DNA of 64,000 nt, taken from assembly GCA_973895155.1 (NCBI GenBank), contig OZ316896.1:2418001-2482000 (forward strand), written 5' to 3'. The notes beneath the pieces were generated by a model. The model had not been told where the DNA came from. It searched no databases and was given only the letters and a program-made list of their open reading frames with translations. Numbering within the stretch: the stretch's first letter is position 1; the number at the start of each line of letters is the position of its first letter. A program made the translations under genes and the position numbers. Positions 37,545-64,000 of this stretch are shown piece after piece. The DNA is from Marsupella aquatica (taxonomy: Eukaryota; Plantae; Marchantiophyta).

Positions 37545-40500
37545 TCAGTGTGCAACTGCTGTTGATGAAGTCAACTGCAGAAGGAAGGTGGGCTTGATCC
37601 ACTTCTCCCTTTCATCTGCAAATGCTGCTTCCTCCATTGTGAAAGTCACACCCGGATCTGGCCACGCCTCCGATGGTGACAGGACTGCTTGTTCCTCATC
37701 GGACTCAACATTGCTTAAGCTTATGAACTCCATTGACCCTTCATTAGAAGTCTGGCCATTCTCAACGACCGTTGAAATTTGATCATGGTTTCTAACAACG
37801 ACTTTACGTCTGATTGGTTGTTGCTCTACTGTAGAGAAATACCTCTGCTTGCTCTTTACACCTAACTTTATGCCACTTACTGGTACATCAAGCTTAACTT
37901 TCTTCTTGGGATGGTGAAATTTGCACGTTGATCGGTCAAGGCACTCTCCTGTCTCCGCATAGACAGAACAGACATACGTGTGCTTTTTGTTGCACTGCAA
38001 AACACAGATGTAATTTACTACCACTGATACTTAGAGTCTTAGTGCTCAGTACTAGATCGTTGGATATTCATGCATGCAGCTGAAAACTGTGAGAAGGGTA
38101 AAGCAGGTGCTGAATCCATCCTTCAGAAACTTGTGAGGAAACTTGGTCTCACAATTTTCGGTGCACTGAAGACACACTGGCGGCTTGTGACGTGCAAATG
38201 CCTCCGGCAACATCGGCTTTTCTACTTGCGACTTGCACTGGCCATCGAGCCTCACAAGAGGGCTCCGATGGTCAGTGCAGCACATGTTAAAAAGCCATCT
38301 AACAAATAGTGAGAACAAGCATTCAAGAAGTGAAAATATACCTTATCTCCGTCTTTGCAGTACCCTCGAAGAAATCCATCGCAGTAAGAAGCTTTCGGAT
38401 TCACGCTTACATGTCTATATGGACAATTCTCATTTGTGCAAAGACCTGTAAACCAAATGACCCTCCAAATCAGGAACGACACCCACTGAATATGATTCCT
38501 TACAGTGCCCGATTGCGAAGTGAAAGACTGAATTTATTTAGCACTGGGGGTCAATCAGGCCTATTAGGAACGACTACAAACCTTCCAGAAAGAAGGAACA
38601 GTCCGGCATGCGCTCAGGAATGACCTGCAATAAAACGGAGGGTGGTTGTGTTTAGGCCAACAATCAGGATTGTGAGGGGCTGTCTCAAAAGAACTGATCA
38701 TGGTGCTCAAGCTTCAAAGCACAGGGCTCAAATCTCCTTATTCCGGAGTTTAGTCTCACAAAAAACTATACCTTGTGAGTCAAGAGGCACTGGACATCCG
38801 TGCAATTCCCCTTCAAGAACTTTGTGCAAACCGCCACTTTTTCGGGATCATGGATGTAAGGACATTTTCCGCTCTCTTTGTTGCACTTTCCAAATTTTGT
38901 AAAAAACTGGCAGTACTGCTGCTTCTTGGCACCCCGCGATCTTGCATTGTGCAAACTCCACCGAACCTTCTCACTGGCAAGAGCACGACTGGCAGTCTTC
39001 GGGTCTCGAACAAGTTGATTCCCGTTTCCAACTCTCAAATAGCTGCACATAAAGGACAAGCTGTGAAAAGCAAGCAGAGACAAAGATCAAATGCATTGTG
39101 AACCTGAGGGCTTATACTTCTACAAAATTTCAAACGGATTATGCACCACTGCCAGCAACTCAATCCTCAAAGTAATCTGAAGCCAAAAAGGATAACCTTT
39201 ATTGAGAAGTTGAGGTAAAAGAGTAACTTACACAGTGCCACCAATTATTGACCTTCTTGGAGTCAGAAGTGGTGAGGTCATAGCCCATCTTGCTGAAGAA
39301 CCTTTATCTGTAGTTCCAGCTTCTCCTTGTAAATCTACGATAATCCACAAGTAGGCAGGACTTAAGATCCCAAACAATAAAGCAGAAACAGGTCAATCAT
39401 CAAGCTTGCCCATGCACGAGGTTGCTGCATTGCTACATGCTTCCTCTTTGTCAGGAGATCTGCGAAGTGCATGACTCTCAGAGATCTTGTTGAAAATGTT
39501 CTTGAAATACCTTGGACTCGCTGTAGTGTCTTCGACGCAGCATCCATCTTGTATCGTACTAGTCCAACCCACACAATTCGTTGTCCTTCACCTGTCGCAT
39601 GGAAAACTATCTCCTTAGAAAGTTCAGAAACATCACTCCCGTTTGAGCAGAAAATCCAACTGTCGTTGCAAATGAAACCTCTGTGAGCATGACCAAATTG
39701 CAATTTGAAGGAGATTTTCCGCATAATTGAAAAATGATATTGCACTTCATCTGCCTACGGTGGCAAGACTGTACAGCTCCTCTTGTGAGACTGATCTTTC
39801 AAGTGCTGTGTGAAGCCAATCAAGCGAACATGGAATTAGTGCCTGGCGTGGCATGAACATGTGCAAACATCTTTGACAGGTCTGCAGCTTTCCATTCCGA
39901 TTCCCACCTCGTGCAGCCTTACGAACAGCTCTTCTTTCATCCTTCGCTTTTGCGGCAGCCTCCACAAATGCCTCTTTCTCTTTTCTTTTCCTTCTCTCCG
40001 CTTCTGCAACAGCCTTCGTGACCTCCTGGATCAGCGGAAAATCGTAAAGATGAAGCCACAATGTGAGTTTCTGCTACAAAGTTTAACTTATAGGTTTAGG
40101 CATATTGTCTTAGAAATGATAAGATCTTCCTAATGCTAACAGCATCTGGGTAACAGCAAACCCTGATACTCTACAAACACACATCACACCATAAAGCGTC
40201 AAGATGTCGATATGACTTACCACACTAACAGTCCATATAAAAAGTAAGACGGTTTCCTCCTTCACTTGCCAAAATATTAAACATAAGCTGACTTGACCAA
40301 CCAGATTCAAAACCAGAGAATTGGGCCCGTTTCGGGCACGAGACCATTTAAAGATATCGAGAATGCGACACTAACCTCACTTGCTTGCTTGGCACGTTTT
40401 TCAAGGGACTTGGTCCACTTCAGATTACCACCGCCTACACTCATAACCCCTGATCGACGCAAGGAGAAACCATCTGCTGAACGTGTGTACACAGGCTGGA

Positions 40501-43500
40501 CTGGTCGTACTTTGCGCAACCTTTTACTGCAAATAATCAATACATCATTTGAGATCAAAGACAAGTGACCAAGTGTTGGACCGGAAATCCAGATTATAGA
40601 TGCACTTGACCATGGATCTTACACAGCACAAAATTTGGCTCCTAAGGAGTGATTCTGACGTCATACCTCATCAGAAACAGGAGAGATCCCTTCTTAACTT
40701 CCGGCAAAGGCCTGAGCTTCTGAGACCTTACAGGTGTCCTCAGATTGTTTGGCCTCTTCCAAGGGAACAACGATGACCCTGTACGCCGATTTTCAGCGGA
40801 AGAGCTGTTTGCATCTGCACCGTTTAGTGTCCATACCCAAGATGAACGCCCTGGAAAATCCTTCTTCAATCGCATACCTGCTGCCACATAAGGGATGACT
40901 TTAGGAGACCCACAAATCGACCGAAATGCTCTTGCTACCCTGAGCTTAAGGCCGGAACGGTGACAATCGCTCATGCAAATAGGAAACTGGTCAACAAAAA
41001 GAACGTCCCGGTTAAACATACTGGTAAAATTTCCTCACCACAAACACAAGGAGATAAGAATTGAGATATGACCTCTGCCCCGCCTCATCTTCTTTAGAAC
41101 TAAGGTACTTCCACGTCCTTGTTCTTCTGGAATGTTAGAAGAGAGGCCACTGCCTAGCGAATTTCGTGCAACATTTCGACCCAAACTTCCTTTACCAGAA
41201 ATGCTACGAACAAGTTGATTAGTTTTCCTCTTGAAATAATGACCCAGCATATAACCAGTCTTGTTGGCGTGCATACCGTCAGTATCCACCGATAAAAGAT
41301 TGGAATTTTGTGGGGGAGCCACAACAAGTTGGTTCGCTTTCCTACGCACATACAATCTATTGGTACTGCCCGGCGTTTCAAGAAATCTACTGCCTAGGTT
41401 TCCTGGCACAGATATTAAATCCGTGCTGTGGCTGGAAGAGGTCTTATCGATACATCTGCTCACACCAACTGCGCCTGAACGATCATCAGGTCTATCAAGG
41501 ACTGAGAGTTCAGGCCTATCAAGGACTGAGAGTTCTGGGGAAGATTTCACTCCAGTTGGCTGCTCCTGGTGTTGTCTCAAGAGTTTACTAGGGTTAACTT
41601 GCGGGTCTGATGCCTGTAGAATAGCTCGTGGTGAGGTTTTCATGAAAGCTGATTGTGAAGATTGTGACTTACCGAGGTCACTGTTTCTACTAAAGATCTT
41701 CGGAAGGTTGACCGGTCGTACAGAGGATGCAAAGGCTGCATCACTCTCAATGATAGGAGCTAAGTATTTTCTATTTGTTGAAAAATAGGGTTTCGAGGTT
41801 GTAGGATTTGAAGTAAAAGCGTTTCTAGAAGGAACGGGTTTCGTCATGGGAAGTGTCTTCGGCAAGGGCCTTGCTTGTCCTGGAATAACGGAAACGGCCT
41901 TCATATCGTTTGTAGATGGCAAATTTGATGCCCCAGGAGCTCTTACTAGGCTATTTCCTTTCCGCACATACGCAGTACTTTGGCCACTTTTGGATCTACC
42001 GGCTGATTGAATTACTCCACCAAATGACCTTGTTGATCTAAATACATTGGCATTAGTAACAGGTGTAGAGCTAGAGGACGTGCCTCTGCGCCATGTGTGA
42101 GCCCCGGGAGCATGCGATGAGCTTAGCTGCCCCCCCGGAGCAGGCGCAGCTGCAGTAGCCTTTTGCAAGAGTGGCAATGGCGGGTGCTGCTCCTGGGGAA
42201 TTGAAGGTGATTCTTCAAATTGTACTTGCCCTAATGGAAGGTCGTGGGCAGTCGATTTCAGATCCTTTACGGCATCATTGGAAATAATCACACTTTGTTC
42301 AGCTTTGTTAGGCTTATCAAGGGGTGACAAGGATTCATCCCCTGCCTGCCCTACCGGTGGACAGACATCCTTCTTTGACCCCTGGGTGACCGCCGTGCAA
42401 TCCGAATTCCTTCCCTCGGACACAGAATCCTGACCCTGATCCTTGGTTGGCAAATTCGAGCTCTCAACGATATGATGGTGCATAGATCCCAAGTCTGTCG
42501 GTGTTTGATCGATTCGTTCGCCGATATGAGCATTCAGATTCGCTCCAAAGAGTCGTACTTCTTTTGGTGTTGATAAAGCAGAGGATGACATAGGTACAAC
42601 TGAGATCCCATTATCTGTTTCTTCATCAGAATGACGTTCCAAAACCATCATTTTAGAGTTACCTTCCAAGGACTGCAAACATGGCAGGCTCATCACTGCA
42701 GGTGGAAGATTTGGATGCTCAAAATCTACAGCATCCAAAGAAGCTTTCGATGGATCCATATCTGACCCTGAGCCAGTAGGAGTAGATCCCATACCGATTG
42801 ACTGAATAGTTTTTGAAGCAACTTCAGATGGCTTACCTTCACTGATAGGCTGCTTACCTCCCAGGTCTGGCTGGGATGAGGTATGGTCGCAATCGAGTGG
42901 GGAGGTATTACTTCCGAACCGTTCAGACTTTGAATCTGGACTTGGACTTTCTTGCCCTGACAGGTCTTCTGAGGAAAGTATTGACAGACTACCTTCACGC
43001 TTTTCTTGATTTAAATTCTGTACGGGGATGACAGCCTCTACGGGTAGAGAGGAGCTTCTGTGCACAACCTTTTCAGTATCGAGAACGCTTTTCTTCAAAA
43101 TTTGGTCCTTCCTGTGGCCAGTGGCAATGACTTTAGGATGCACCTTCAATCCATTGCCGGGCAATTGATCGGACCCTTCAGCAGCTCCCATCTCTGAGGA
43201 ACAAAGACGCGCAGTACCCCCAGAATCCCCTGATGGCAAGGCAACCCCGTCCTGACAGGATATCGACTGGTCTGGATTCGTAAGTTTTGGACTCTCGACA
43301 AGCGTAAGGTCCTTCTGCAAGCCTCCTGCGCCTTGCTCTGACGGAGAAAATACTTTCTGACCATAAGGGACCAATCTGCTTACAACTGACTCTAGTTGTG
43401 GCGAAACATCCTGAGCTTGAACTTTCTGTGAATCTTGGTTTGGCCATTCACACGGCTCTGCTTGCCTACCAGGAACCCGCTCTGCAACAAAATTCTTTAT

Positions 43501-46395
43501 ATTTAAATTCTTCAATCCAGAATCTTCAAACTCCCGGGAAAAATCAGTGCTCCTGGATCTGCTGGAAATTTGGAAGCCAGGAAATTCGTGAGGGCTGCTG
43601 TGGACTTCATTACGTGCAGATGTCTCAACAGGAACACTGGGAGACTTCGTACTCGATGATGGCAGGGACACCTTATCATGGACTAAAAGAAGACTGTTAT
43701 CCTTCCATTTGGTCTCCGCAGCTGTTCTCGTCGAATTAGTCTCGGGTCTCAAACCAACCAAGCGGGAAAATATCGACTTATGCCTGTGAGGTTCAGGCTC
43801 ATGTCTTTCGGTACGTGCGATCAGTTCATCCTTCACAAGTTGGGAATAAGGTGGAAAACGGTCCTGTGAAATGGGCTTCTCAAGATATTGTGGGCGAGGT
43901 GAGCAATGTGATCGCGGATTTTTCTCCAAGTTAGCTGCTGGAGACCGCCCTTCATACTCCTTCCTCTTTGCCAAACTAAACCGATCTCTTCCTGAGTTGG
44001 CGAGGAATGGATCCTCAGAACCACATCGAAAACTTCCTCCACGTTGTGATAACAGTCTGTGATCCTTGTTAGTCGCCAGGCTATCAACGCGAGCTTGGGC
44101 GGTGTCTCGAGTTTTGTACTCCTCAACCTTCACGATGCGCTGGCCGTGCTTCTGCAATGAAATGGTCATTTCTCCAACAAGTCGACTATCCTTCGCTGTT
44201 GCAGTTGTTTTAGAGGTACTTTTCCGTTTCATAATGTTTGCGGTTCGTCCGCTTGATTCCTTCCTAAGTCTGTCTGACAGAAAACTGTCAAGCTCTCCAC
44301 CTCCGGACCTACTGTCTCTGAATTCTCTGGAAGAGTTTAGAGGCCTTAAGTCCCTCTCTCTCCGCATAGTGTCCTGTACCTGATTCTGATTCTGGTGCGG
44401 TCCATCATAGTAGAGCCTCCCCGCTGATTTGGAATTCAAACCACTGGTACGGCTTTGCGATTCCTTGATACCTTCTCTACTACTACGCATGTCCAACAAG
44501 TCCGATTCAAAACCTGCACCCACAAGCTCAAACCGAGATATAGTTCGCTCGTTATTCTTATATCTTGGAGATGGAGGACGCTTCCGGGTCAGCAAAGACT
44601 GCTCTCTCGACCTGCCTTTGGGCTTCAGCTCATCCCCCTCTAGAATTCCGTTCTCCCTTGCTTTCGGAGAGCTTGAAGAGCGCGACTGTGGCCTCGAACT
44701 TGGAAGGAATTGGAGAGCCTCCGAGGAATATACTGAACTGCTGTGATTTCGGAGACCAGTGCCTTGAATTTCCACGTTCGGTGTACCTTCTGTTCTAGAG
44801 GATATGACAAGGAGATCTTGCTCTTGCTTGAGAAGGTGGGTCTTAGATTCATGACCGTGCTGCTGCTGAGCTTTCTGAGAAATGATTGGAGGCGGTGGAG
44901 TAACCTGTCCCTCTTCGTGCTCATCATCCTCAGTCTGCAGCTTCCAGTAGTTCCCTTTGTGTTGATGAATTTCCTGATTCGGTTCATTTTGTTGCACATT
45001 CGCGGCGGGACCATCCTCCTGTGACTGCAGCTGCTGCCAATACTTTGCTGCTTTGTGTTTCTGCATTTCCTGATTCCGTTCCTTTTGATGTCCTTTCGCT
45101 TGGTGCGCGCCCTCCTCCTTCCTAAGCTGCTGCCAATACTTTGCTACTTTCTGCTGCTGGAATTTCTGATTGCGATCCTTCTGTTTTCGCACATTCGGTT
45201 TGTGCTCATCTTCTTCTGCCGGCAGCTGCTGCCAGTACTTTCCTCTGTGCTGCTGAACTTCCTGATTCCGTTGTTTTCCCTGTGCATGTACTTTGTGCTC
45301 ATTTTCTTCAGCCTGCAGCTGCCAGTATTTTGCTGCTTTGTGCTCCTGAGTTTCCTGATTGCTTTCTTTAAGTTGCCGAAATCCGGATTGAGGCGAACGA
45401 AGTGGAAGAGGAGTACCTGAACTGTTCATTCCCGAGAGCTTTCTGTGCCTTGTCAGTCTTTCTCTATCCAAATTAGCCTCCTCCTCTCTATTCCTTTTCC
45501 TTGACAAATTTTCCAACTGATATCCACGGCCAATTGCGTGATGTGCTCTTTCCAAGTTACGTGAAGACGACCGATCACCATAGCGAGCGATTAGTTCAGC
45601 ATGACCATTCTCCTCAGCTCCAAACCTGATTCTCCCATTTCTAGTAAGGGGATCCAACAGCTGCTCTTGTTGCTGCTGCTGGGCGGCCACAGCAGGACGC
45701 TCATGATAAGCCCTAGGCATCTCCACTCGAGCAGCTTCGTCGATAAGGCTTAAGTGACTTCTCATAGCGCTCTTCATAAAATCGTTACTCAAAATCCCAT
45801 CCGTTTCTCTAAGTCTAAGATTACCCGCGAAGACTTCTCGAGGAATAGCCCCCCTGGGGAACTCTCCTCGCGAAAGGTTTCCTACGGATTGTTGTTGCTG
45901 CCTCAACCTGACCTGCGGATCATCAACGCGCAAGTTCCGATCCATGCGCCCTCTAGTAGATATAGATCCAATGTGCCGGATTATACCCCCTCCATCCCAG
46001 TCCGTTGGTTGGCCTCCAGGCCCGGGACCCTGATGCACCAACGAGTTCGCTAGACTCGGCAATGGCTGAATCGGGTTCACCCGACGCTGATGCAAGGCCA
46101 TATCGGCGGCGAGTGCTCGCTGCTGCTGGTCATGTGCAGCACTCCACAAACCCCCGGCTCCTCCTCCAGCCATCCTTCCGACCTCTTCCTCCTCTAATCC
46201 ATCGAATCGTTGGTGCTGGGCGAGGGAGAAGTGCGGATGATGCTGCTGCTGCAGCGTCTGGAATCCCACTGATCCTCCTCCTGCTCCAACTGCGGATGCT
46301 GCAGCTACAGGGTGCTGCTGCGGCAGCCTGGCACCGGTAACCCGATCCCTCCTGCTATTATCTATAAGAGACATCAATGGTCGAGGCCCCGCCAT
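37545..46395 (-). CDS. SOP1: Large CCCH zinc-finger protein, SOP1/C3H7 (ZC3H3-like nuclear exosome cofactor)
   Basis: A ~5.3-kb first exon carries YVRKGNSLVR, YVRRKANQLV and YFKRKTNQLVR. Later exons give SLEKRAKQASE, YLRVGNGNQLVRDPK..ALASEKVRWSL and five tandem CCCH fingers (YCQFFTKFGKCNK..CPYIH, VCTKFLKGNC, etc.). First ATG at 46395; stop at 37545-37547. Confidence 0.88.
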
Positions 46396-48651: not shown

Positions 48652-50437
48652 AGAGTAATGGGAAACCATTTTGGAATCATTGACTAATATTTTCTACATT
48701 GTCACTCTTGGTTTTGTCCAACTAGCCCATGCAAGCTTTGCTGACAAAGAAATGGTGACTATGATCATGCCCATTCACCCCAACTCTAGTTGTGCCCCTC
48801 TAGTCATGGCCAAAAGGCTTCATTCCAGACTGTAAGGCTGTGCTTCCTATCCTGCTTTATAGATGAAAGCGCCTGAATGCCCATTTTTCGAACTAGCCCA
48901 GGTTACCTCTTCTTTGAACTTGAATAGAGGAGAAGACAATAAAAGTGTCAACAAAATATATTTGCTATCACTATGTTTTGAAGGCTAATGAAATGATAAA
49001 AAAAACATCATGTCTGGACCCCATCATTCTAACAATCATACATAGCATAAAATCCTCCTTCTATGCACATGTTTGATGGTGAAGCCTAGAGTCACAGTCT
49101 AGAGGCTTTAACTCTAGACCTCAACTCTAGCTTCCCTTCACCCTTTATATATAAGATGGCAACAGATGATGACAAAGTCAATATGCATGACATATCATAC
49201 ACCCCATCCTGCTCATTCACATACATTTGGTGGGGCCCTTGAGTTATGGTCTAGAGGCTTCACTCTAGAAGCCTAGACCCTAGCTCTAACTTGTGTTCCG
49301 GTTTATGTTTGCGCTTGATAACAAGATTATAAAGTTTGCCACTTTTTTAGTTTAATTACTACATTGCCATCTTTTTCTACGGTTGGTTAAGCAAAGTAAC
49401 TTTGATTAGTTTCGAATGATCCAATGGTTAACATCTCATCAGATTATATCATCGAATATTTGTTATCATCCTCAACTTTACCTTAATACCCTCACCCATC
49501 CTCAACCAGGGGGACAGGGAAGTGGGCAAGAGAGTCGGGCAACCAACCAAGATGGGCAGAGCAAGTTGGGGAGACCAAATTAAGAGACCCTACTCAATCT
49601 TAAGACTTGGAAAGGGTGTTGTGATTAGGGTAGAGGACATGATGGCCATCTGTGAGTAAAACCTGGTTAGATGTAGATTAAGAGACTTGTTGTTAACTAG
49701 ATTTACTTTGTTTACCTAACAATGGAAAATAATGGAAAATAATAATTGAACAGAATGTAGTAAATCTCAAAACTCATTTATTGTGGCCCGTTGAGCCCCG
49801 CAATTCCTATGTTGCACAAAAGGTGAAAACATGAGGATCTATATCTTCACATTTACTAATGTATGATTGGCTGATCCACGTAAGTGTAGAACTTTCTTGA
49901 CATTAGTTGCCCGGGCAAGTGTAGCCCAAGGTGTAACCTCCTTGCGCCAAATGAGGTTCTGAGATCAAACTTCATGAGTCAACTATCTTTTGCATAAACC
50001 CACATCTCAAGTTGGGCTTCACCATAGCCCCTTTGCACACAAAGGACTTGACACTTGGAAAAATTGGAGGTCACTATGGTATCATATAAATGGAAATGGG
50101 CAGCCAAATATCATCAAAGAGTGTGACTCAAGTGCTTGTAATTACATCGGTGGTCTGGCATTTACTGGTGGTACTTTAGTGTAACATGTCAACACTCCCA
50201 TTTGAGAAAATTGAGACCTCCCAAAGGATGAGACATCCAAAAAAGTGAATGCCTCTATGAACAAGTTGTGGTTTATGACTAATTAATCACAATCATAAGA
50301 CCTTATTATGGCAGTGTTTTGACACACTCTAAGAGGCCTTATCTAGCTTTGGATCTCACTTTAGATAGATTTGTGGGTTCATTCTAATAGTAATGTCCTT
50401 AGTGTCTGCACATTGATGTTCAAACTTATAGGTCCAA

Positions 50438-53400
50438 CTCACATGTGAGTTGCCCTTCACAACGCGGCTCTCAAACTAAAACTTGTCATCATATTATTCA
50501 CTTAGGCTTTGATGTCAAAAGCCCCTGGTCAGGCAGGCTTGCCAACATCTTTTGGGGAAACCCACGGGCAAAGGCTGCAACCTTCCTCCCCTTGCAGGTC
50601 CCACCCTCTACATGGGGATTACAACATATATATAAGCCCTTCATAATTCTCCTAAGCGGAGGGTACCTCAAAGATGAGTCTCAAACTCAGGCGTGCACAC
50701 ATGACATGTAGAGGGAAAGAAGATTGAGTAGATATTCTTTTTTTCAGAAATTGTAGCTTGATTGAGGGTTGCATTGTGAAGGGCCGCTATGAGACAGCAA
50801 AGCAAAAGGTGGAAGTAATCTATGGGAAAGATGATGAAGAAAAAGGGATAGAGAATCCACAACCGGATGATATTGCGAATGACTGTTAAAGGAAGCAAAA
50901 AGTTGACCAGGCTGACAACAATGACAACAATGACATTGTCAATAAAAGGTACTATATGATTTGATTTAATCTATTTCTCCACTTCACTGTTCAGTGTGTT
51001 TGTTCACTGTGAGGTTCATTGATTTTCTCATGATTGATTCTTGTATTGGTCCAATGCAGTAAAGACTTACGGCCATTCAGGTCAATTAAACTTGATAAGG
51101 GTGGAGACCTCAAATGAAGTCGCGCGTGGGCCAGGCTATGGTACTAAAAGAGAGCCATCAGCACACTACGCACAACGACCCATAGTTCATAGAAACTTTT
51201 CACTAGGACAATTTGGGGAATTTTTGGCCAGCAAGAGGAGCAGCTTGGAGTGAGACATGATCAGTGTGAATCAAAATTTTCACTCTATCACTAACTATAG
51301 TACAATTTCAATCAATTTAACCAATTGTTGATTCAGGTGAATACCTAGCCCAGACCACAACTTAGGCAAATTGACTATGCAAGTAAGGGATACAATTTGA
51401 ATGTGAATAGTGTAACAGAACATTGACACGCATAACTAGTGTAGATCTCTAGAGCGGGAACCATTATGTACATTTCACTATGCAGATTATTTTACGGTGC
51501 AAATTACAACACAATAGCACACTCAAACTGTTTATGAGCATTATCTTAGTATGTTTCAGATTTTTTTATAGATATTCATTCTACACAGTCTTTTATTTTA
51601 CGGATGACAACACAATAGCACACTCAAACTCTTCATGAACATTATTGTTTAGAGATTAATATTTTGCAGATTCTTTTATTATATGGATAATTTCATGCTT
51701 CAATGACGAATTGGTTCTTGGAATGCTTTTTAAATTGGATGATTTGGAAGAAGTTATTTCAATGGTGGACCTGCGTTGAAATAACCTGAGTGTTGTTGAT
51801 GATTATGGTTCTTTCAAGCGTCTGGCACATGGCTGGCATGTGTCACAATCATCTGCACGCTGCCTAACACCCCGTGGTGTGCTGGTATATGACTGACATG
51901 TGACAGTCATATGTAGCCCAAAGTCGATACAGGTGGTAATTGGCATTCAAATACACTTAACTGGTAATGAGAAATTAAAAATGATAGGTGGAGAAACTGG
52001 ACAAGGACCATAATAATGGAAACCATGACCTTAAAGTGAGACATTTAGGGCTGCATTGTGAAGGGCCACTCACATGCGACCCTCAATGAGCAACAAAGTT
52101 TTGTAAAGCTCAATTCACATTTGAGCAAGTTTCTTGCAAAAGTCAGTTCCATCTTGAGCTGAAATTTGTGCAGCCAAAACCTGAGCTTCTTGGACCTATC
52201 ATAGCACTAATAGGCTCCTTCACTCCTATGCCCTATAATTTGCATACCGACTTAGGCGGGACGACTCTCTGCAGCCTGCCTGGTGACCAAACTGGTCCTA
52301 CTTTTATCTGTTGCTAACCCAATCAATAGGTAAAATTGCATTCTTTGTACATTTCCCACTTAGCTTTTTTAGTGGTACTCATAAAGTAGAAAACCACACT
52401 ATAGTCTTGGGACTATGGATAGGCTGAACAAATGACAAAGGAATAAAACAAAGGTAGGCTTGCAGTGGGTTGTGGTCCCTGATATGCATAAAAGAAACTA
52501 ATGTTGACAAGCTAGGAGCAATAACCAACACAAGATTCTCCTGCAAGTGCTCTAAGATCATAGTTACAAAAGCAAACTACTGAAAGCAAATGTAAGGACA
52601 ATAAAAGGGAATAAACTTATCAACAGATACAATACATGAAACGTAAATAACACTGAAGCCAAAAGAAGAGGATGAAATTGCATGGCATTTTGACCTAGCA
52701 AACATAGTCGCGCACACTCTGTGAGTGAATAGGTGACCAAAAGCTAGAAGCAAACAAGAGCATGCAAGCTGAGCACAGGAGCGACAAACGGATGGATCAG
52801 AATTGACCCAGCAGGGAGATGTGGCCCCATAATAAAAGAACACACAATCTGAAAGTACAATAAAAATCATACAGTTGAAGCTACGAGAGATATATATGGT
52901 CTCTCATATGTCTCCTCGCATACGCAAGTTTACATACGGTCACCCTATATCTGGTAACGGAGACCATATGGCCTTCATCCTATACAGACCAGCAATTCAC
53001 TGAGCAAGATGTACCCGACTGAACCGCCTTACGTGCCAGGTCTGACAGCACTATCCATGCATTTCCAAAGGCAAGGGCCGGAAGCTTTCAAACCCTTGCA
53101 AGTCTTGATCTTTGTCTTGTGAAAAAAACAAGAAAAACTGTACACTCTTCCAAATTTTGTAGTCCTTGAATATAAGGGAACTAGATTTGTGTGGGGAACC
53201 AGGTTTTGTTATCAAGGAAGCTATGCTACTTTTCCCCGTATCAGTATCGGGACTCCAAAGGGCCGCAACCTTGAAGGTTCGCAGATGCAAGTTGGCCCTT
53301 ACAAAATTTTGTTGCTCGATTGAGGGCCGCGTTGTGAAGGACTCCTCACATGCCAATTGGGGAGTGTGGGGCTCCGTTGAGGGCTGCATTGTGAAGGGCC

Positions 53401-53470
53401 CCTCACATGCCAATTGGGGAGTGTGTCGCTCAGTTGAGGTTGCATTATGACTGGTTGCTCATGTGTGAGT
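50438..53470. mobile_element. Probable decayed DNA-transposon region with reiterated motif gagggc(t/c)gc(a/g)ttgtgaagggc..ctcacatg
   Basis: Motif at ~50440 (inverted), 50765, 52048, 53322 and 53378. Inverted pair at 52080-52123 / 53282-53326. No intact ORF. Confidence 0.4.
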
Positions 53471-53514
53471 TGGACCGTAATACCTGTCAGGGAAAAAGGT
53501 TACCAATGTGTAAC

Positions 53515-54692: not shown

Positions 54693-56225
54693 ATGGCGTT
54701 GAAGTTTCTAAATAAAAAGGGATGGCATACGGGGAGTTTGAAGAATCTGGAAACAGTTTGGAAGGCGGAGCAGAAGCACGAAGCAGAGCAAAAGAAATTG
54801 GCTGAGTTGAAAGTGCAGCTGCACAAGGAGCGAGAAGCTGAGGAATTGCGGCAGCTTCACATTGCGTCTGGCATTGCTCCGCGGCAGGATCGTCTTGAGT
54901 TTCTCTATGACGCTGGACTTGGAGTTGGAGGTGGAGCGAGTAGTAGCAAGCCTTCGACGACTGAAGAAAAGAATTCTGCAAAGACCTCATTAGAACCCGG
55001 CAAGCAGAACAGAGGGGAGCAGCCATCAGGTGAGACATTTGCCCCAGCCGTTCCAGGAGCTCTGTTCTCGCAGACGAATTTCGTATCTGCAAACGATAAG
55101 TGGCGGAAGATTCACAGCGATCCGCTGTTCCTCATCAAGCAGCAGGAACTGGCAGCGCTGGACCGCATAAGAAAGAACCCGGTGAAGATGCAGATGCTGG
55201 AAAGTCAAGCGCGTAAGACACTGAAGCCAGAGAAGGGCAAGGCTGCGGCTGACAGCAGAAAGCACAAAAAAAGAAAGCATGAACGAAATGACGATGAACA
55301 CCGTCGGAGGAAGCATGAACGGAACGAGGATGAACGCAATAGGAGGAAACATGACCGGAAAGATGATGATCACGATATGACCAAGCGCGACCGGGAAGAG
55401 GATGAACAGCAGAGGAGGACTCGTGAACCGGAAGAGGATAGAGCTCGTAGGAGGATGCATGAAAGCGAGGAGGATGAACCACGTAGGAGGAGGCCTGAAC
55501 CGGAGAAGGGTGAGACTCTTAGCAGGAAGCATAAATGGCAGGAGGATGACAAACACGGGAGGAATCATGGACTGGGAGAGGATGACAACAATAAGATGAA
55601 CAATGACAGGGAAGGGGATGAACCTCGTAGAAGGAGGCATGAGCCGGAAAGGGGTGGAAATCCCAGCAGGAAGCATGCACGGGAGGAGGATGACAACCAC
55701 AGGAATTATGGACGGGGTGAGGACGACAACTATAAGAGCAAGCATGGGGATGTACCCAGGAGGAGGATGCATGAAAGGGAAGATGATGCACCCCGTACGA
55801 AGAAGCATGAACGAGAAGAGGTTGACAATCCTAGCAGGATGCATGAACGACAGGATGATGACAAGCACTCGAAGAGTCATGGACGGAGAGAGCATGACAA
55901 TTACAGGATCACGCATGACAGGAAAGAGGATGGACCTCGTAGGGGGATGCATGAAAGGGGAGAGGATGAACCCCGGGGGAGGAAGGATGATAGAGAAGTG
56001 GGTACGTTTCTTAGAAAAAAGCACTATCAGGAAGACAACCGCAGGAGAAGTCATGGACGGGGAGAGGATGACAACTATAAGAGGAAGAATGACTGGGAAG
56101 AGGGTGAAACCCCTAGGAGGAAGAATGAACGGGACGAGGATGACATGCACAGGGGGAGTTATGGACCGGTAGAGGATGGATCCCCTAGGAGGAAGTCTCT
56201 CGTACAAAGCCTTAGAAGTGACTGA
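54693..56225 (+). CDS. CWC25: Pre-mRNA splicing factor CWC25 homolog, intronless CDS with charged repeat tail
   Basis: MALKFLNKKGWHTGSLKNLETVWKAEQKHEAEQKKL (CIR N-terminal domain), RQDRLEFLY and SANDKWRKIHSDPLFLIKQQE. ATG at 54693; telo-box TAGGGTTT at 54613. Confidence 0.88.
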   Translation: MALKFLNKKGWHTGSLKNLETVWKAEQKHEAEQKKLAELKVQLHKEREAEELRQLHIASGIAPRQDRLEFLYDAGLGVGGGASSSKPSTTEEKNSAKTSLEPGKQNRGEQPSGETFAPAVPGALFSQTNFVSANDKWRKIHSDPLFLIKQQELAALDRIRKNPVKMQMLESQARKTLKPEKGKAAADSRKHKKRKHERNDDEHRRRKHERNEDERNRRKHDRKDDDHDMTKRDREEDEQQRRTREPEEDRARRRMHESEEDEPRRRRPEPEKGETLSRKHKWQEDDKHGRNHGLGEDDNNKMNNDREGDEPRRRRHEPERGGNPSRKHAREEDDNHRNYGRGEDDNYKSKHGDVPRRRMHEREDDAPRTKKHEREEVDNPSRMHERQDDDKHSKSHGRREHDNYRITHDRKEDGPRRGMHERGEDEPRGRKDDREVGTFLRKKHYQEDNRRRSHGRGEDDNYKRKNDWEEGETPRRKNERDEDDMHRGSYGPVEDGSPRRKSLVQSLRSD

Positions 56226-57584
56226 TGCAAGTGCCTAAAGCTTAACTGAAAGATCGCGTGGCAGCTGTGAAGTTGTCGATAGGAACTTGCAGGGATCATG
56301 CTTGTCCTCGGTATATAATAGGACCTACATAAGTAGGAAAATGGGATGTGATCCTTGATTAGCCAGCAGAGAGCCTAAACCTCTCCTTCGCGAAACGGAT
56401 TGAAACAATTTGTGCCAAGGACTACTGCCGATTATCTGTCTTCGTTGGGCCATCTATTTTCTGATGGAAGATTGCATTGCTTCGTCAACTCGGTAGATTT
56501 ATTTCCACTGGTAGAGCGTAGAAGTTATAGTGACGAGTTTCCTAATTTAGTCTCCTGACTGAAAGGGGAATGCATATTTTTGCTAGTTGTCGAAAATTTA
56601 TCGAAAATTGGTCGAGCTTTCCTGCAAGGTTTCATAGATTTAGGGGTTTGATGTTCACTTGCCTAGATGGTCAAGTTATCACTTCCTTCTGTGACCCACT
56701 GTCGGTTGGATTAGACCCCGAATTGCAGCGTGAGAAGCTCGGGCAGCTATGTAGAGGTTGAATTGAGTAAATTTGAATCTCAATTCTATCATTTCAAATG
56801 GATTGGGTTGGTTTTGCACTGGATACCACTGGATGCGTCAGAGAGAGAATTGCAGTTTGTCAGATTCATTTTTGTAGTGAAGAAATGCAACAAGAGAGCG
56901 AGGGAGAAAAAAGAAGAACCCAGTCTGGCTTTTCCAGTGTCTGAACGACGGCTTAAGTAAGAGATTGAAGTGAGCGTTACCTTCTTTGTCTTGGATGTAA
57001 GACGATACTGTTGTCTTGAGGGCCCACTTCATCACTTCGGTCTCTTTGTCTATCAGTAGAGTATTTGCTTCCAAATGAGTTGTCAAGTGCAAGAGCTTGC
57101 AGTGCCGTTCTGGTGAATGATAGAACTTTAAAATCTCTGTAATAGCCGATCAAACTGAGGCAGCAGATTTCATCGCTGCTGCTTATCATTGCGCTTTTAA
57201 TTAAGCAGAAACTAAAAATAATTCCACCTGGCAGGCTTACAACCGGTCTTGACGCTCGATCTGTGAATGCACGGGTCGATGTGACTGCACTGCAATTGCT
57301 TTCATTTCGTTCCATGAAACCTTTCTTGAACACATATTCTTCATCTACCGTATACAAAGGGAATTCGAAGCCTGCATATCTCCTTTTATTGATCAAGAAG
57401 GGTCACTCCACTACGACAGACCTTGCAGTTTGCACACCAGATTCGGAAACCTGAACTGTCTACTACAGTGTTGCAAAGAAGTACCACAAGTCCATGATAA
57501 CCCCTCGACTGCCTCATGCCACCGCGTGTCCCTTGAACGTATCTCGTTGCAAAAACCCCATGACCTAGACCGATTCTCTGCAAT

Positions 57585-58133
57585 CTAGAACATTCTCAGG
57601 AGCTTATCAACTCCTGGTAAGCTCCTGGTATAGTCCTGTGGAAAACTAAACCCTGTCAGAACTCTCTTCTCTGTGTACAGGCGCCCCGTTAATGGCATGA
57701 CATTCCAATACATTGTCAAATTGAAGTCCGTTCCGCGTAGATGGCTTCCTTGGTCCACAAATGGATATTGATATTTGTGTCTCAAGCGACGATTAATCAA
57801 CGCATCTTCCTTCTTTTCTACGATCAGATCCCACAGAGAGATCTGATTGAGCTGGTTCTTGGCAGATGCGTACTCAGCAGCCACGAACACAAACAGCTGC
57901 TTGGTGTTCCAGGTGAATACCGACCGCAAATCTGCAGAAATCCCTAAAGTCAATTTCGCCTCATCGTTGCCATTGTTCAGTCTCTGCAGCACGTCCACGT
58001 TGAGAACCTCCAGATGAACCTCCGGCGACGCAGAATGCAAAGTATCCGTAAACGAAGCTAGCAAGCAGAGGCCGACCAAGACCGTGACCCCGAACGTGAG
58101 GACCGTATTGGCTCTAAACAGAACGGAGTGCAT
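57585..58133 (-). CDS. SPCS3: Signal peptidase complex subunit 3 (SPC22/23), intronless CDS
   Basis: MHSVLFRANTVLTF, one TM segment, ADLRSVFTWNTKQLFVFVAAEY...NQISLWD...DQGSHLRG...WNVMPLTG. The true ATG is at 58133; the longer ORF call starts at a non-ATG codon. Confidence 0.93.
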   Translation of the reverse strand: MHSVLFRANTVLTFGVTVLVGLCLLASFTDTLHSASPEVHLEVLNVDVLQRLNNGNDEAKLTLGISADLRSVFTWNTKQLFVFVAAEYASAKNQLNQISLWDLIVEKKEDALINRRLRHKYQYPFVDQGSHLRGTDFNLTMYWNVMPLTGRLYTEKRVLTGFSFPQDYTRSLPGVDKLLRMF

Positions 58134-58155
58134 GACTCGCCACCCTCTAAATTTT

Positions 58156-59203
58156 CTCTCTGAGGAGAACGGTGCTAACACAAATATAATACACAGTCAA
58201 AACACTGAGGTTCGCATAGCTTCAATTTTTGGTTGGCGAGCAGAAACCACACGTCGATGTGTAAACTAAGACCCACACTGGTTCGCCGACAACATTCAAG
58301 TAAATTCAGGCAACGAGTCTCGGACCAACAATTGATCCTTGCCGACGGATCCTGGCTTCGGGTCGATGTTCAAATTTTCGCCTGGCCTTGAACGAGAAGA
58401 CACTGTATCACGAGCTGCAATTCACCTACTTCAAAGCACCGCGTGGGCGACTCAATGCAGCTTCTCCCTCTGTAACAAGTTAATTAATAACGATTGTTAT
58501 ATTGTTATACGCCCGCACGGAAAGGAAAGGCCAACGCTCATCCTTGCCATAGCGGAAGACAAAGAATTCCTGTTTCAAATGACAAAGCTAATGAAAATGC
58601 AGAAGCCGACTCGATTGACCACCTCAAACAGGAAAAGAAACGAAAGGAAATGCCGACCCACTCCAAAAAATCCTCGACTGCCATCAAAATCGTTCGAGGA
58701 AAAACCGTAAAGCAATCCTAAAGAAGAAATCGATAATTACAGAAAACGGCCGGCAATGCCAAACTCCGAACCCGCTGAAAGCTGGAATCAACGGACAGAG
58801 AAACACATGACATAGGCAGAAGCAGCGACATCAAACACAAGAAATCACACTCCCCCACCGAAATCCTCACTGTCACTATCGACTCTCAAAAAAACCCCGA
58901 ACAGAACATATTCAAAGCATCGACCCAAAATTCGAAAATGTATCAAACCGAAAAAGACGATGCAAACCTGCTGCGCAACGAACCAACAACAACATCTACA
59001 GAGCTTCAGACGACAATCTGAACGATTTCCAAAGCTCACGACGACCTCGACTCCAACCAAATAGAAGAAACATGAAGTGCCCCCTTTACTCACCGCCACG
59101 CCTCGCTCATTTGCCGTCTCCTCAATAATCTCCCTCTCACAACGATCACGCCTTTCAGCCCTCCTCTCTCGATACCTTCTGCGCCTTCTAGTGGGAAAGA
59201 ATT
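58156..59203 (-). promoter_or_regulatory. SPCS3 5' leader (exon 1 + ~0.92-kb 5'UTR intron); left arm of the inverted duplication
   Basis: Reverse complement aligns end to end with 61739-62772. Donor GTGAGT at 59093-59088; acceptor TTAG ending at 58175. Confidence 0.8.
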
Positions 59204-59207
59204 CTGT

Positions 59208-59322
59208 AATTAGTGTTATGTCCAAATTAGTCACACTAATTTATATATGTACATTATTTAGTGAAACCACATCACGGTATTTAGTGTTATGTACAAATTA
59301 GTCACACTAATTTATTTATGTT
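59208..59322. repeat. Tandem duplication, ~72-bp period, at the edge of the inverted arm
   Basis: ttagtgttatgt(c/a)caaattagtcacactaatttat occurs twice. Confidence 0.8.
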
Positions 59323-59904
59323 AACTTGATCAGAAAGTAAAAGTAAGAGGGCTAGAGCATCTATTAGGAATGTAAGGGCTCGGGAACAGGAGAGCATTTT
59401 TTTGGTGTTGAGAGCTCTCTAGTAGTGGAGGGCTGGCTAAAGCATCTATTGAGTATAAAACCATTCTTGTATTTTTAGTAGAAATAACTTTTATTTACTT
59501 TGCCACTAAAGATGTTTTAATTGAAAATACCATGATTTCATATATGAATCATAAGTTTACCGAGGTAACCAGAGAACTATATACAAAAACAGTGACATTT
59601 TTGTAAATACAAAAAAAAATAGTGACAATATTATAAATTCAAACAACTTTAATGACAATGTACTTAAAAGCTGTTCATAGAAAATAAAAATGCTTTCCAA
59701 TCATGGCTCTACTGGTCCCCTTGTTCTCTGGAATATATCTCAGGGATTTGCAGCATGCGGGGTGCGGCCATAGCTGATGCCCGGACTCGGGGTTGGCTCT
59801 CATCATTGGCTGCTATATGACTCTCCCTGAACACACCTCGGACTCTCATCTTGTGACCGCATATTATTATCCTCCTCCCTCTTCAAGGCGATTCAAGTAA
59901 TTGA

Positions 59905-60142
59905 TATGCCATTCGGTATACATCTTGGCTTCCTAGGGAGTTTACATTGGAGTCTCGACGGGTACACATGTTGGCTTCCTAGGGCATATTCATTGGAGTA
60001 TCGACCGGTATAAGCTGTCTGCTCCACCGGCTGTGGTGGAGTACACATTGGTATATCGACGGGTACATGCTATCTGGCCGGCTGTGGTGGAGTACACATC
60101 GGAATATCGACGGGTACAAGCTGTCTGGCCGGCTGTGGTGGA
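59905..60142. repeat. Degenerate tandem repeat (~45-55 bp units)
   Basis: catt/cgg..t.tcgac(g/c)ggta(c/t)a..ct.tctg..ccggctgtggtgga reiterated. Confidence 0.75.
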
Positions 60143-60414
60143 TGGGGATGGCAAGTCCATTTCAGTTCTCGTGAAGGTTTTCTAGCCGATGTTTACTTCT
60201 TTGGCTACTCTCTTAGGATAGCATTCTATCCTCCTTGGGGTCCTCCCTCCCTCTCTCTTCTGCCTCCTCCCTTCTGGCGGTCGGGGGGGAGGTCGCCCTT
60301 CACCTTCACTGGGTGTGCTCCTTTCATTGCCCCCTTAATTGCTCTTGTTCCTTCCTGCCTTCTCCTCCCAGGCAGGCTTTGTTTTTCCTCTGGGTTCTCC
60401 TTGGAATAAAGTTT

Positions 60415-60468
60415 TAAAAATAAAAATAAAAAATAAAAAAATAAAAAAATAAAAAATAAAAATAAAAA
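60415..60468. repeat. (T-A4-7)n microsatellite
   Basis: taaaaataaaaataaaaaataaaaaa... Confidence 0.9.
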
Positions 60469-60874
60469 TGATGTGACTTATGGCCTTGAAGCACACCTAA
60501 GTCATTGGACAGAAACAACTGAGAACCAGATAGCAAAAATAATTCAATCATACATTCAAGTAACCCAGACTGGTTCATCTGACTAGTAACAAATCCAACC
60601 AAGCTGCCAATATTAACTGACTAGGAAAAGACCCAACCAGACTGCCTTGATCCGTACAAGTAGCCAATATTAACTACAATAACTAGTAACTAACCCAAGC
60701 AAACTACCTTCATCTATGCAAGCAGTGCAACCAAGTGACCCTGATCCATAGAAACAACCTGGTTCATCTAATAGTAACAAATTCTCAAGATTCTAATTAG
60801 ACTTCAAAATTTTGCAACTTCACTTCAAAATATGAAAACTAATAATTGCAATAACAAAATCCACTATGAGTGTA

Positions 60875-61495
60875 ATTCAATGATCAAGGTGATCTGATTC
60901 CGGCATGCAAAATCCTAGCTCTGCAAAAATCCATGTAATCCAATTGAGATACAGTTCAATGATTAAGTTAATATTATTCCAGTGTGCAAAATCCTCACCC
61001 TTCAAAAGTCCAGGTAATCCAATCGAGACACTTCCATGATCAAGTTAATCTTATTCTAGCGTGCTACATTCAAGTCCTGCAAAAGTTAGAGTAATCTAGT
61101 ATCAAAAGAATTCACTTATGAGGGATGATCCAGTATCTAAGTAATTCATTGATCACTGCAATCATAATATTGTAGTGTGCAACATCCAAGCCTTGCTAAG
61201 TTGTTGGGGTAATCTAGTATTGAAGTAATTCACTCATCAGGAATTATCTCATTCGAGTGTACTACATCCAAGCCCTCCAAAAATTGGGGTAACCTAGTAT
61301 CAAAGTAATTCACTTATCATATCTTATTCCAGTGTGCAAAATCAAAACCCTGTAAAAGGAGGGGTAATCCACTAGGCAACTAATCCACTCATTAACGTAA
61401 TCATATTGGATACCTTGTATTTATCAAAATGAAAACCCTGTAAAAATTGGGGTAATACATTAATCAAGTAATATACTCATTAAGGTAATCAAATG
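60875..61495. repeat. Degenerate tandem array, ~70-80-bp unit, about 8-9 copies
   Basis: Recurring tattccagtgtgcaaaatc...caaaa..ggggtaatc.a.t...agtaattcactcat. Confidence 0.75.
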
Positions 61496-61738
61496 GGCTA
61501 CCGTGTATGTATCCCTTTTTCATATTCTCCTAACCAACATCAATCGAATTATTACATGTACATGTATTCAGACGCTAAATTAAGGTCGTTTCGTTGGGTT
61601 TGTTACAGTAGGTCAAACTTGATTAATACAAGGTGGCTTAGATGCTTGTATTAATCAAGGAATAAAGGCCCCCTTGCGTTCTCAAATCGGTGATTGCGGA
61701 GTTTGCGACCGTGTTTCAAGCCAGTGTGAATTTGGAGG

Positions 61739-62772
61739 AACTCTTTCCGACGGCAAGGCGCAGAAAGGTAGCGAGGGAGGAGGGCGGAAAGGCGTGATCG
61801 CTGTGAGAGGGAGATCGTTGAGGAGACGGCAAATGAGCGAGGCGTGACTGTGAGTAAAGGGGTAGTTTATGTTTCATCCCTGTGGTTGGAGTTGAGGTCG
61901 TCGTGAGCTTTGGAAATTGTTTACAGATTGTCGTCTTAAGCTCTGTAGATAGTGTTGTTGGTTCGTTGCGCAGCAGGTTGCATCATCTTTTTCGGTTTGA
62001 TACTTTTTTCACTTTTGGGTCGATGCTTTTGAATATGTTCTGTTCGGGGTTTTGTGAGAGTCGCTGGTGACAGTGAGGGTTTCGGTGGGGGATTGTGATT
62101 TCTTTGTGTTTGATTTCGCTGTATAAGCCCGGTGATTCCAGCATTTAGCGGGTGCGGAGGTTGGGATTGCGGGCCGTGTTTCTGAAATTATCGATCTCTT
62201 CTTTAGGGTTGCCTTACGGTTTTTCCTCGAACGTATTTGATGGCAGTCGAGGATTGTTTGGTAGCAGTCGAGAAATGGGTCTGGCATTTCTGTTGTTTCT
62301 TTTCCTGTTTGTGGTGACCTATCGAGTCGGCTTCTCATGTTCATTAGGTTTATCATTTGAAATACAAATCTTTGTCTTCCTTTTTGGCAAAGGATGAGCC
62401 CTGGCCTCTCCTCTCTGTACGTATAACAATCGTTATCAATTAACTTGTTACAGAGGGAGAAGCTGCATTGAGTGGACTACGTGGTGCTTTGAAGTGGGGG
62501 AATTGCAGCTCGTGAAACACTGACTTCTCCTTCAAGACCAGGCGAAAATCTGAACATTGACCCAAAGCCAGCATCCTTCGGCGAGGTGCATTGTTGGCCC
62601 GAGACTCGTTGCCTGAATTGACTTGAATGTTGTCGGCGGACCAGTGTGGGTCTTAGTTTACACATCGACGTGTGATTTCTGCTCGCCAACGAAAAATTGA
62701 AGCTATGCGTATCTTAGTGTTTTGACTTTGTATTTTATTTTTATGCATGCAGGCACCGTTCTTCTCAGAGAG
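61739..62772 (+). promoter_or_regulatory. SPCS1 5' leader (exon 1 + ~0.90-kb 5'UTR intron); right arm of the inverted duplication
   Basis: Donor GTGAGT at 61850; T-rich tract and TGCAG acceptor ending at 62752. Homologous throughout to the reverse complement of 58156-59203. Confidence 0.8.
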
Positions 62773-62814
62773 GACATTACAGACACTACAGAGGAGTAAT
62801 TCCAGTGGAGCAAC

Positions 62815-63111
62815 ATGGACTGGCAGGGGCAAAAGCTTTCGGAGCAGCTCATGCAATACTTACTATTGACATCCGCTGGTGTGTCCTTTTTGACTGGATT
62901 TTTCGTATCGTCTTATCGAATGATGCTTATCATCTATGTGGCTGGGGTATTCGTCACTTTTCTTGCCACAGTCCCTGAGTGGCCTTTTTACAACTATCAT
63001 ACCTTGGAATGGTCTGAGCCACCAACCACCGGCGCGCCCAGAAGCAAACTGCTGAGGTCAAGGCAGCAAGAAGCCGCCAAAAAACCAGCCAAGCCCGTTG
63101 CGAAAAGATAA
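62815..63111 (+). CDS. SPCS1: Signal peptidase complex subunit 1 (SPC12), 98 aa
   Basis: MDWQGQKLSEQLMQYLL, two TM segments and VPEWPFYNYHTLEW, the typical SPC12 signature. Confidence 0.93.
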   Translation: MDWQGQKLSEQLMQYLLLTSAGVSFLTGFFVSSYRMMLIIYVAGVFVTFLATVPEWPFYNYHTLEWSEPPTTGAPRSKLLRSRQQEAAKKPAKPVAKR

Positions 63112-64000
63112 TACATCTGCCTTATTTGCGTTGCCGCCTTAGGGATGCAGCAGCGTGGTTTAGATATGAGCAATGACTGATTTTCCCATCATTCTACAAT
63201 ATGCCTGTGATTTCATTGATCTCAGATACCGTCCTCAAAGCTCAAATTTCGGATCGGCCTTCCAGTTCTGTAGATTTTTGGTCACATATTGTTTTCACAT
63301 TCATTCTGTAACTGTTGTCCTTGCTATTGATGCTCTGTTCAAAGCTTCTGCGTAGCTGGAGAGTATAGAAGTTGAACTGTACAGTGGAAAAGTCGGAAGC
63401 ATAGCGGTTCGGTGGGACATTCTTAGTAAGTGCATGATATTTGGAAACAAACGATGAGCATTAATTGGTGCTTTGAGCCGAGAAATTGATCTCTTTATGG
63501 CACACGGTCATGAAGGCAGTGTCCCTTTAAGCTCTGCCACGGCTTGTCTCTTGGAATGCGGAAGTTAAGTCTGACAATCTTACGTGGTAGTGGTTTCTTG
63601 TACCGTGGTAAGTGGTTTCTTGTACCGTTTCAAACGAAGGACCAGAGGGATTGCAGATCACAAATGATTATATGTTGTTGTACTCGTCCTCTCTCGTTCT
63701 ATTGGATTGCATTTTGTTACCGTAAGCAAGTACGCTAGGAGAGGGTTACACTGAATGTGACCATTGTGGACTCTGTTTGCTGGAACTATATTAGCGGTGG
63801 AAAACTGATATGTGCCGAATCGTACTGCTTATTGACTTCTACTAAGGAACTCTGGAACATCGAAGGTGTTCTGTAACACCGCCGGCTCTAAGATTGCGGT
63901 GCAAGTACTTATGTGTAGATTGTTCCAGCAGAAAGTGCCCTCCCAAGTAATGATATGAAGTAACTTCTATCCTTCGACTCACATAGCCCGAGCAAAGAAG

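Follow-up and report, generated by a model that had tools for sequence, protein, structure and literature searches.

Among the described systems closest to the locus reported here are chimeric and orphan retrogenes, in which an intronless copy takes its 5' exon and control region from another gene, and retrogenes driven head-to-head from the bidirectional promoter of a neighbour, which make up 11% of the mammalian cases in the accessible text of PMC5470649. Here we describe a stretch of the liverwort Marsupella aquatica (contig OZ316896.1, positions 2,418,001 to 2,482,000 of the forward strand; the window, 64,000 nucleotides (nt) in full) in which SPCS3 and SPCS1, two non-homologous subunits of the endoplasmic reticulum (ER) signal peptidase complex, stand head-to-head behind inverted copies of one leader. 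How eukaryotes cluster the subunits of one complex, and whether they do so for dosage balance, can be asked in few cases with a traceable origin. At this locus the steps can be ordered: the two genes are unlinked in Marchantia and Sphagnum and linked in two leafy liverworts, and the likely parent of one of them is visible as remnants. Our best explanation, to which we give a probability of about 0.6, is that SPCS3 is an intronless retrocopy, likely the replacement of an intron-bearing parent, that faces SPCS1 head-to-head; the 1-kb first exon and predicted intron ahead of it would be an inverted copy of a leader that likely originated at SPCS1. Its observed basis is the two arms and their borders, the uninterrupted open reading frames (ORFs), the same-contig accessions in Calypogeia fissa, and the separation of the genes in Marchantia and Sphagnum.

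The identities of both genes, proposed by a first-pass annotation of the DNA, were borne out by Pfam above the curated cut-offs. The SPCS3 (SPC22/23) coding sequence (CDS; 57585..58133, minus strand), likely a retrocopy, is one uninterrupted ORF of 182 amino acids (aa) and matches the whole SPC22 model (E 4.5e-49, 166.7 bits, cut-off 25). The SPCS1 (SPC12) CDS (62815..63111, plus strand), 98 aa and uninterrupted as in relatives, covers the whole SPC12 model (E 4.7e-27, 94.3 bits, cut-off 23.6). As the annotation had it, the two CDSs are unrelated, 79 of 100 shuffles reaching their alignment score. Both proteins are ordinary members of the SPCS3/Spc3 and SPCS1/Spc1 families of the eukaryotic signal peptidase complex; only the gene layout is unusual, and SPCS3 carries a 14-aa C-terminal extension.

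Arm A, upstream of SPCS3 (58150-59204, minus), and arm B, upstream of SPCS1 (61738-62778, plus), form an inverted duplication, with 902 matches over 1,081 columns of the pairwise alignment. The claim of such a duplication was thus upheld, also by shuffling (local alignment score 1,440, maximum of 100 shuffles 62) and by self-blastn of the 64-kb window, where the arm pair is the top off-diagonal match and no further copy occurs. The identity, put at roughly 80% by eye, is 83.4% counting gaps and 88.9% without them. A 34-nt word quoted as exact in both arms is indeed exact but unremarkable, the longest identical run being 40 nt against a permutation mean of 44 (p 0.64). The distance from the end of alignable homology to the ATG is 16 nt at SPCS3 and 36 nt at SPCS1, instead of the 22 and 42 nt first given. 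Homology breaks off at both arm ends, and the common part equals the predicted transcribed leader, with the upstream DNA not included. Upstream of the arms, in comparisons of the 3' flanks, and in those of each CDS with the flank of the other gene, homology did not exceed shuffles (41–84 of 100 shuffles reach each of the six scores). Between the arms lies a unique, AT-rich spacer of 2,533 nt (59205..61737; CpG observed/expected ratio 0.47; local repeats of 45, 51, 79 and 88 nt), the two ends of which show no homology to each other.

The arms mismatch at 113 of 1,015 columns and differ by 18 indels. Mismatches fall on the predicted first exon (13/111), intron (97/879, 11.0%) and second exon (3/25) alike, and divergence is uniform along the length (100-nt bins, chi2 p 0.98), as after one copying event. 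Neither patchy conversion tracts nor conserved islands were detected within the arms (chi2 p 0.28 and 0.98). Transitions and transversions number 53 and 60. The CpG observed/expected ratio is 1.17 and 0.98 in the arms versus 0.62 for the window, a level like that of unmethylated gene starts, and 44 of 67 CpG sites are kept in both arms. A coding role of the arms was rejected, since 13 of the 18 indels are of 1 nt and the antisense ORFs of 114 and 115 aa have no Pfam match. Rfam gave no structured RNA match (E up to 1) in 56200-64000. A 24-nt first-exon word common to both arms had no match in metagenome contigs, and against 42 SPCS1 loci the best hit of the arms was at chance level (E 0.031).

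Splice sites, exons and introns of the leaders were predicted from motifs, with first exons counted from the arm start. The purine-rich first exon, GTGAGT donor, ~0.9-kb intron and AG acceptor described by the annotation have their motifs at all claimed positions in both arms. The predicted first exons (arm A, 59094..59204, minus; arm B, 61738..61849, plus) measure 111 and 112 nt and are 68–70% purine. The donors start at 59093 and 61850. The T-rich YAG acceptors, which end at 58175 in arm A and 62752 in arm B, leave 41 and 62 nt up to the respective ATGs. The predicted 5' untranslated region (UTR) introns are 919 nt long in arm A (58175..59093, minus, TAG acceptor) and 903 nt in arm B (61850..62752, plus, CAG acceptor). 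They contain 12 and 11 ATGs, respectively, so that translation would need splicing or a downstream start. The predicted second exons comprise 41 nt of SPCS3 5' UTR (58134..58174, minus), the first 25 nt of which are homologous to arm B, and 62 nt of SPCS1 5' UTR (62753..62814, plus), in which homology to arm A stops at 62778. One weak-context upstream ATG is kept in both first exons (59110, minus; 61833, plus), out of frame with the main ORF. The predicted upstream ORFs (uORFs) have diverged and would span, if spliced, 14 codons in arm A and 4 in arm B.

SPCS3 here is likely a retrocopy, and it probably replaced its intron-bearing parent. Four coding introns of SPCS3 were deduced from mis-spliced or partial protein models of relatives. 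In the Sphagnum model P0038 the junction falls where the lumenal domain starts; another Sphagnum model, P0015, omits exactly one internal block; the Marchantia model P0056 (also P0182) reads through at the end of that block; and metagenome fragments (P0179) start at the last exon. At all four sites the window ORF is continuous, which would amount to a joint loss of the coding introns. The ORF is intact, 90% identical to SPCS3 of C. fissa, and gives a single gap-poor tblastn high-scoring segment pair with the C. fissa and Marchantia proteins. The SPCS3 matches in C. fissa consist of two linked full-length copies and two frameshifted remnants, P0041 and P0043, on contigs other than those of the linked copies. 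Both remnants begin at the first intron site, and one carries an insertion at the second. Each runs out in frameshifted sequence, the final residues of which would back-translate to GT immediately behind the fourth site; in the window the same frame after that site is continuing code. At three residues the window and the linked C. fissa copies are derived and the remnants ancestral; at three others the window, the linked copy and P0041 are all derived. This fits the remnants being a decayed, apparently intron-bearing parent, split off before the two species parted. The annotation had offered a retrocopy capturing its partner's leader as a second route, which the intron sites and the remnants support.

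SPCS1 would be the likely donor of that leader. Of 42 SPCS1 loci, 39 have an uninterrupted ORF and three are broken copies. Among 20 distinct sequences upstream of SPCS1, a pyrimidine-rich YAG stands no more than 6 nt from the ATG in 14. The proteins behind these 14 sequences we take, by eye, to be flowering-plant-like. A 5' UTR intron ahead of a single coding exon thus appears common for SPCS1, though it is not established for bryophytes. SPCS1 is the likelier donor because of these acceptors, because CpG-rich DNA lies upstream of arm B only, and because a cDNA brings no intron. The DNA upstream of arm B (61638..61737, plus; 45% GC, 5 CpG in 100 nt) is likely the native SPCS1 promoter. The 5' exon of SPCS3 would then derive from a non-parental gene, with the arm homology pointing to the SPCS1 5' region and the direction of copying resting on the points above.

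The proteins closest to those of the window among named ones are from C. fissa (SPCS3 90%, SPCS1 71% identity), followed by Marchantia (73% and 65%). In C. fissa, SPCS3 (CAM6097020) and SPCS1 (CAM6097021) are found on the same contig of 18,966,709 nt with accessions one apart, and a second set, SPCS1 (CAM6111124) and SPCS3 (CAM6111128), shares a contig of 9,444,519 nt with accessions four apart. Their adjacency was deduced from accession order on one contig. A recent genome doubling (Ks, synonymous divergence, 0.05) is given for C. fissa in the accessible part of bioRxiv 10.1101/2025.04.01.646537, and the two sets fit homeologs from it. The pair is unlinked in M. polymorpha (MARPO_0014s0146 and MARPO_0041s0086), in M. 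paleacea (Mapa_003910 and Mapa_002036) and in Sphagnum (linkage groups 10/15 and 12). SPCS3 was absent from the flanks of all 42 other SPCS1 loci, 13 of which have >5 kb on both sides, none apparently from a liverwort. Physical clustering, as proposed by the annotation, is thus seen here and in C. fissa and absent in Marchantia and Sphagnum, and linkage is likely a derived trait common to at least two leafy liverworts.

The window neighbours of the pair, CWC25 (MARPO_0104s0032) and a C3H zinc-finger gene (MARPO_0097s0070), are linked to neither subunit in Marchantia, where both map to one chromosome and SPCS3 and SPCS1 to other contigs. Marchantia synteny failed for this reason as a pointer to the resident gene. 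No C. fissa CWC25 was among the best 120 of 402 matches, and the C. fissa copy of the C3H neighbour (one homeolog) sits apart from the SPCS pair, on a third contig. The flanks may have changed while SPCS3 and SPCS1 remained side by side.

Several points weigh against the explanation that we prefer. The intron sites of the relatives rest on protein models, not DNA. The tree (76 columns, 11 rows, P0043 left out as frameshifted) does not place the remnant, and the clade of the window and linked C. fissa copies reaches only 82/76. There is no poly(A) remnant, with no A-run of at least 7 in 1,359 nt, and no target-site repeat at the arm ends; such marks are borne by young copies only, and over the estimated age of at least 70 million years they are expected to decay. 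As CWC25 next door likewise has no introns, SPCS3 may have lost its introns in place, and a second SPCS3 may exist elsewhere in this genome. The window SPCS3 has a 2-aa insertion in the lumenal domain in addition to its 14-aa tail. A continuation of arm homology to the ATGs, where 6 of the 10 preceding nt and 6 of the 7 first coding bases match, is not significant (p 0.06–0.14). The C. fissa pairing is known from protein accessions, which do not cover strand, spacing or leaders. Finally, the near-ATG acceptor is absent in 5 of the 20 SPCS1 upstream sequences, including 3 of 3 of Sphagnum type, and one of the 20 is incomplete.

The divergence of the arms (K 0.12, standard error 0.012) was set against the age of the linkage. 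The pooled protein distance between window and C. fissa is 9 times that between the C. fissa homeologs, which gives a Ks to C. fissa of ~0.46 (0.19–1.4), calibrated on homeologs with only 5 differences; calibration on Marchantia gives ~0.78. The Ks values and dates used come from the accessible part of bioRxiv 10.1101/2025.04.01.646537, and the protein calibration is rough. On these estimates the arms look ~2–6 times younger than the SPCS3–SPCS1 linkage. Either SPCS3 first came to lie head-to-head with SPCS1 and gained the copied leader afterwards in this lineage, or the duplication is old and conversion or inversion crossover has made its arms alike again; slow evolution of unmethylated intron DNA could explain part of the mismatch. 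The most far-reaching version, which we hold to be possible but less likely than not, is that after SPCS3 had retroposed onto an inverted copy of the SPCS1 first exon and intron in leafy liverworts, at least 70 million years of gene conversion between the inverted arms kept both subunit genes on the same leader. If true, this would amount to concerted evolution of the regulation of genes that have no coding sequence in common, with the subunit ratio locked. Maintenance of the arms by conversion would also give a route by which the regulation of non-homologous genes can co-evolve.

In the order of events that we propose, SPCS3 would have retroposed before the split from Calypogeia, SPCS1 would have served as leader donor, and only well after the two genes had become linked would the leader have been copied, or undergone its last homogenisation through conversion between the inverted arms. 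The predicted transcripts are divergent, and from each of the two a 0.9-kb intron would be removed by splicing, leaving mature leaders of ~150–175 nt that are close to 88% alike in their shared part. The mRNAs of the two subunits would share an almost identical spliced leader, which would tie the expression of the subunits together. Common control, if any, would act through the first exon, the intron and the UTR, not through the upstream DNA. Downstream promoter elements, intron-mediated enhancement and a leaky uORF are candidate mechanisms of shared control. The two RNAs have the arm in the same sense and so cannot base-pair with one another; the CpG content of the arms speaks against silencing. 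Because the arms are inverted, a crossover between them deletes neither gene, and this would favour persistence of the layout. In yeast, Spc3 is essential and the level of Spc1 shifts substrate choice, that is, the cleavage of membrane segments, according to the part of PMC8277137 that is accessible; this essentiality and dose effect would supply a motive for coupling the two genes.

The same history can be read without any coupling: the retrocopy may have needed just some broad leader, so that the two genes would be co-regulated no more tightly than other housekeeping genes. This reading overlaps our best explanation, differs from it on function only, and is quite possible, although we hold it at less than even. 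It is favoured by the upstream DNA not being shared, by uniform divergence with 18 indels and no specially conserved element, by the diverged uORFs, and by the fact that a 2.5-kb gap is rarely broken by chance. Landing beside a subunit of its own four-subunit complex would, however, be unlikely without selection. In addition, the pair apparently stayed together while the flanking C3H gene is on another C. fissa contig (one homeolog), and the divergence of the arms is low for the age of the linkage.

Other origins of the arms fare worse. The annotation had also suggested an ancestral locus with one leader for both ORFs, through alternative last exons or a bicistronic mRNA, later split by inverted duplication and reciprocal loss. 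The consecutive C. fissa accessions could be two products of such a locus, and polycistronic mRNAs are common in green algae in the accessible text of PMC7896298. Nevertheless, no remnant of either ORF was found on the other arm (tblastn with E up to 10 and DNA alignment, including 889 nt behind SPCS1), three accessions stand between SPCS1 and SPCS3 in the second C. fissa homeolog, the Marchantia and Sphagnum genes are unlinked, and a retroposition of SPCS3 would still be required, which makes this origin improbable. We give about as little credence, if anything slightly less, to copying in reverse, by which the leader arose at or was captured by the SPCS3 retrogene and later overwrote the 5' end of SPCS1. 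Retrogenes often gain new 5' exons (PMC5470649, accessible text), and the Sphagnum-type SPCS1 loci without a near-ATG acceptor leave it possible that the intron is not ancestral in bryophyte SPCS1; against this, CpG-rich, promoter-like DNA is found ahead of arm B, in contrast to the 27%-GC DNA next to arm A, and 14 of the 20 SPCS1 upstream sequences have the 5' UTR acceptor. Quite unlikely, too, is an arm that was a transposon or the 5' end of a third gene, inserted twice and recruited as leader. The copy count covers the 64-kb window, which leaves room for this origin; yet only two copies occur there, the arm ends show no terminal inverted or direct repeats (4–7 of 10–20 positions match) and no target-site duplication, CpG is not depleted, neither the two antisense ORFs nor the arms match Pfam or Rfam, respectively, and the borders coincide with the predicted exon-intron-exon unit. 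An assembly artefact, by a fold-back read or a haplotype mis-join, is very improbable given the 113 mismatches in 1,015 columns, the 18 indels, the unique spacer and flanks, and an adjacency that recurs twice in the independent C. fissa assembly.

Set against the known systems, SPCS3 as we prefer to read it resembles a chimeric and probably also orphan retrogene in how it works: it is intronless, its 5' exon would come from another gene, and its parent has apparently decayed (in C. fissa). It departs from these retrogenes in that the SPCS1 host gene is undisrupted and had its leader duplicated, and its likely donor encodes a partner subunit from its own complex and stays intact next door with a near-identical inverted leader. 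With bidirectional-promoter retrogenes it shares the divergent, head-to-head orientation beside an existing gene; here, however, 2,533 nt separate the arm starts, and a leader copy of its own precedes each gene. Bidirectional pairs are defined by start sites <1 kb apart in the accessible text of PMC5572396, which also states that none in yeast or human encodes two subunits of one complex. By this definition the locus would not be a classic bidirectional pair unless the starts lie inside the spacer. Exceptions to the statement on same-complex pairs include HADHA/HADHB and the histone H2A/H2B pairs. Drosophila siren is reportedly, by title, a chimeric gene with a retroposed promoter. Here, too, two non-homologous genes end with copies of one 5' control region; in siren the promoter is said to have moved, while here the coding part likely moved and the intron-bearing leader was copied as DNA. 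The green-algal polycistronic mRNAs resemble the locus in having unrelated ORFs under common 5' control, as far as the accessible part of PMC7896298 goes, but the opposite strands mean two transcripts and make a single mRNA impossible here. For the same reason, and with only the predicted transcribed leader in common, the term operon-like used by the annotation is overstated. In literature searches on this layout and on its parts, no title or abstract among the matches listed described it, most subscription journals lying outside the search.

Further observations concern the DNA around the arms. The AT-rich DNA abutting arm A (59205..59330, minus; 27% GC, 1 CpG in 100 nt) has a TATA-like word at -43. 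The word lies within a 45-nt AT-rich direct repeat (93%; 59206-59321) that adjoins the arm and may have entered as an insertion that provides a promoter. Within the spacer, 59914-61513 holds an A-rich microsatellite as well as tandem arrays, all degenerate, of 46, 51, 79 and 88 nt. At the end of the SPCS3 CDS, an 11-nt tandem duplication (57609-57630, minus) shifts the frame past the likely old stop into the 14-aa tail, which is absent in C. fissa and Marchantia. In one flowering-plant-type SPCS1 locus (L009), an opposite-strand gene, which we take from its peptide to be histone H3-like, lies head-to-head with SPCS1, 1,052 nt upstream of position 10001.

Among the other genes, CWC25 (54693-56225, plus), a splicing-factor gene, is intronless, encodes 510 aa with a tail of degenerate 36-nt (12-aa) repeats, and lies tail-to-tail with SPCS3. 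Upstream of it, a family of 22–41-nt repeats in both orientations (50431-53476) is embedded in CpG-depleted DNA and likely represents transposon remains. The C3H zinc-finger gene spans 38766-46395 (minus) with a first ORF of 1,786 codons; in Marchantia and Riccia its orthologue is on the same chromosome as CWC25. An intronless ORF of 367 aa (5520-6623, minus) had no Pfam match and by eye has the look of a secreted hydrolase.

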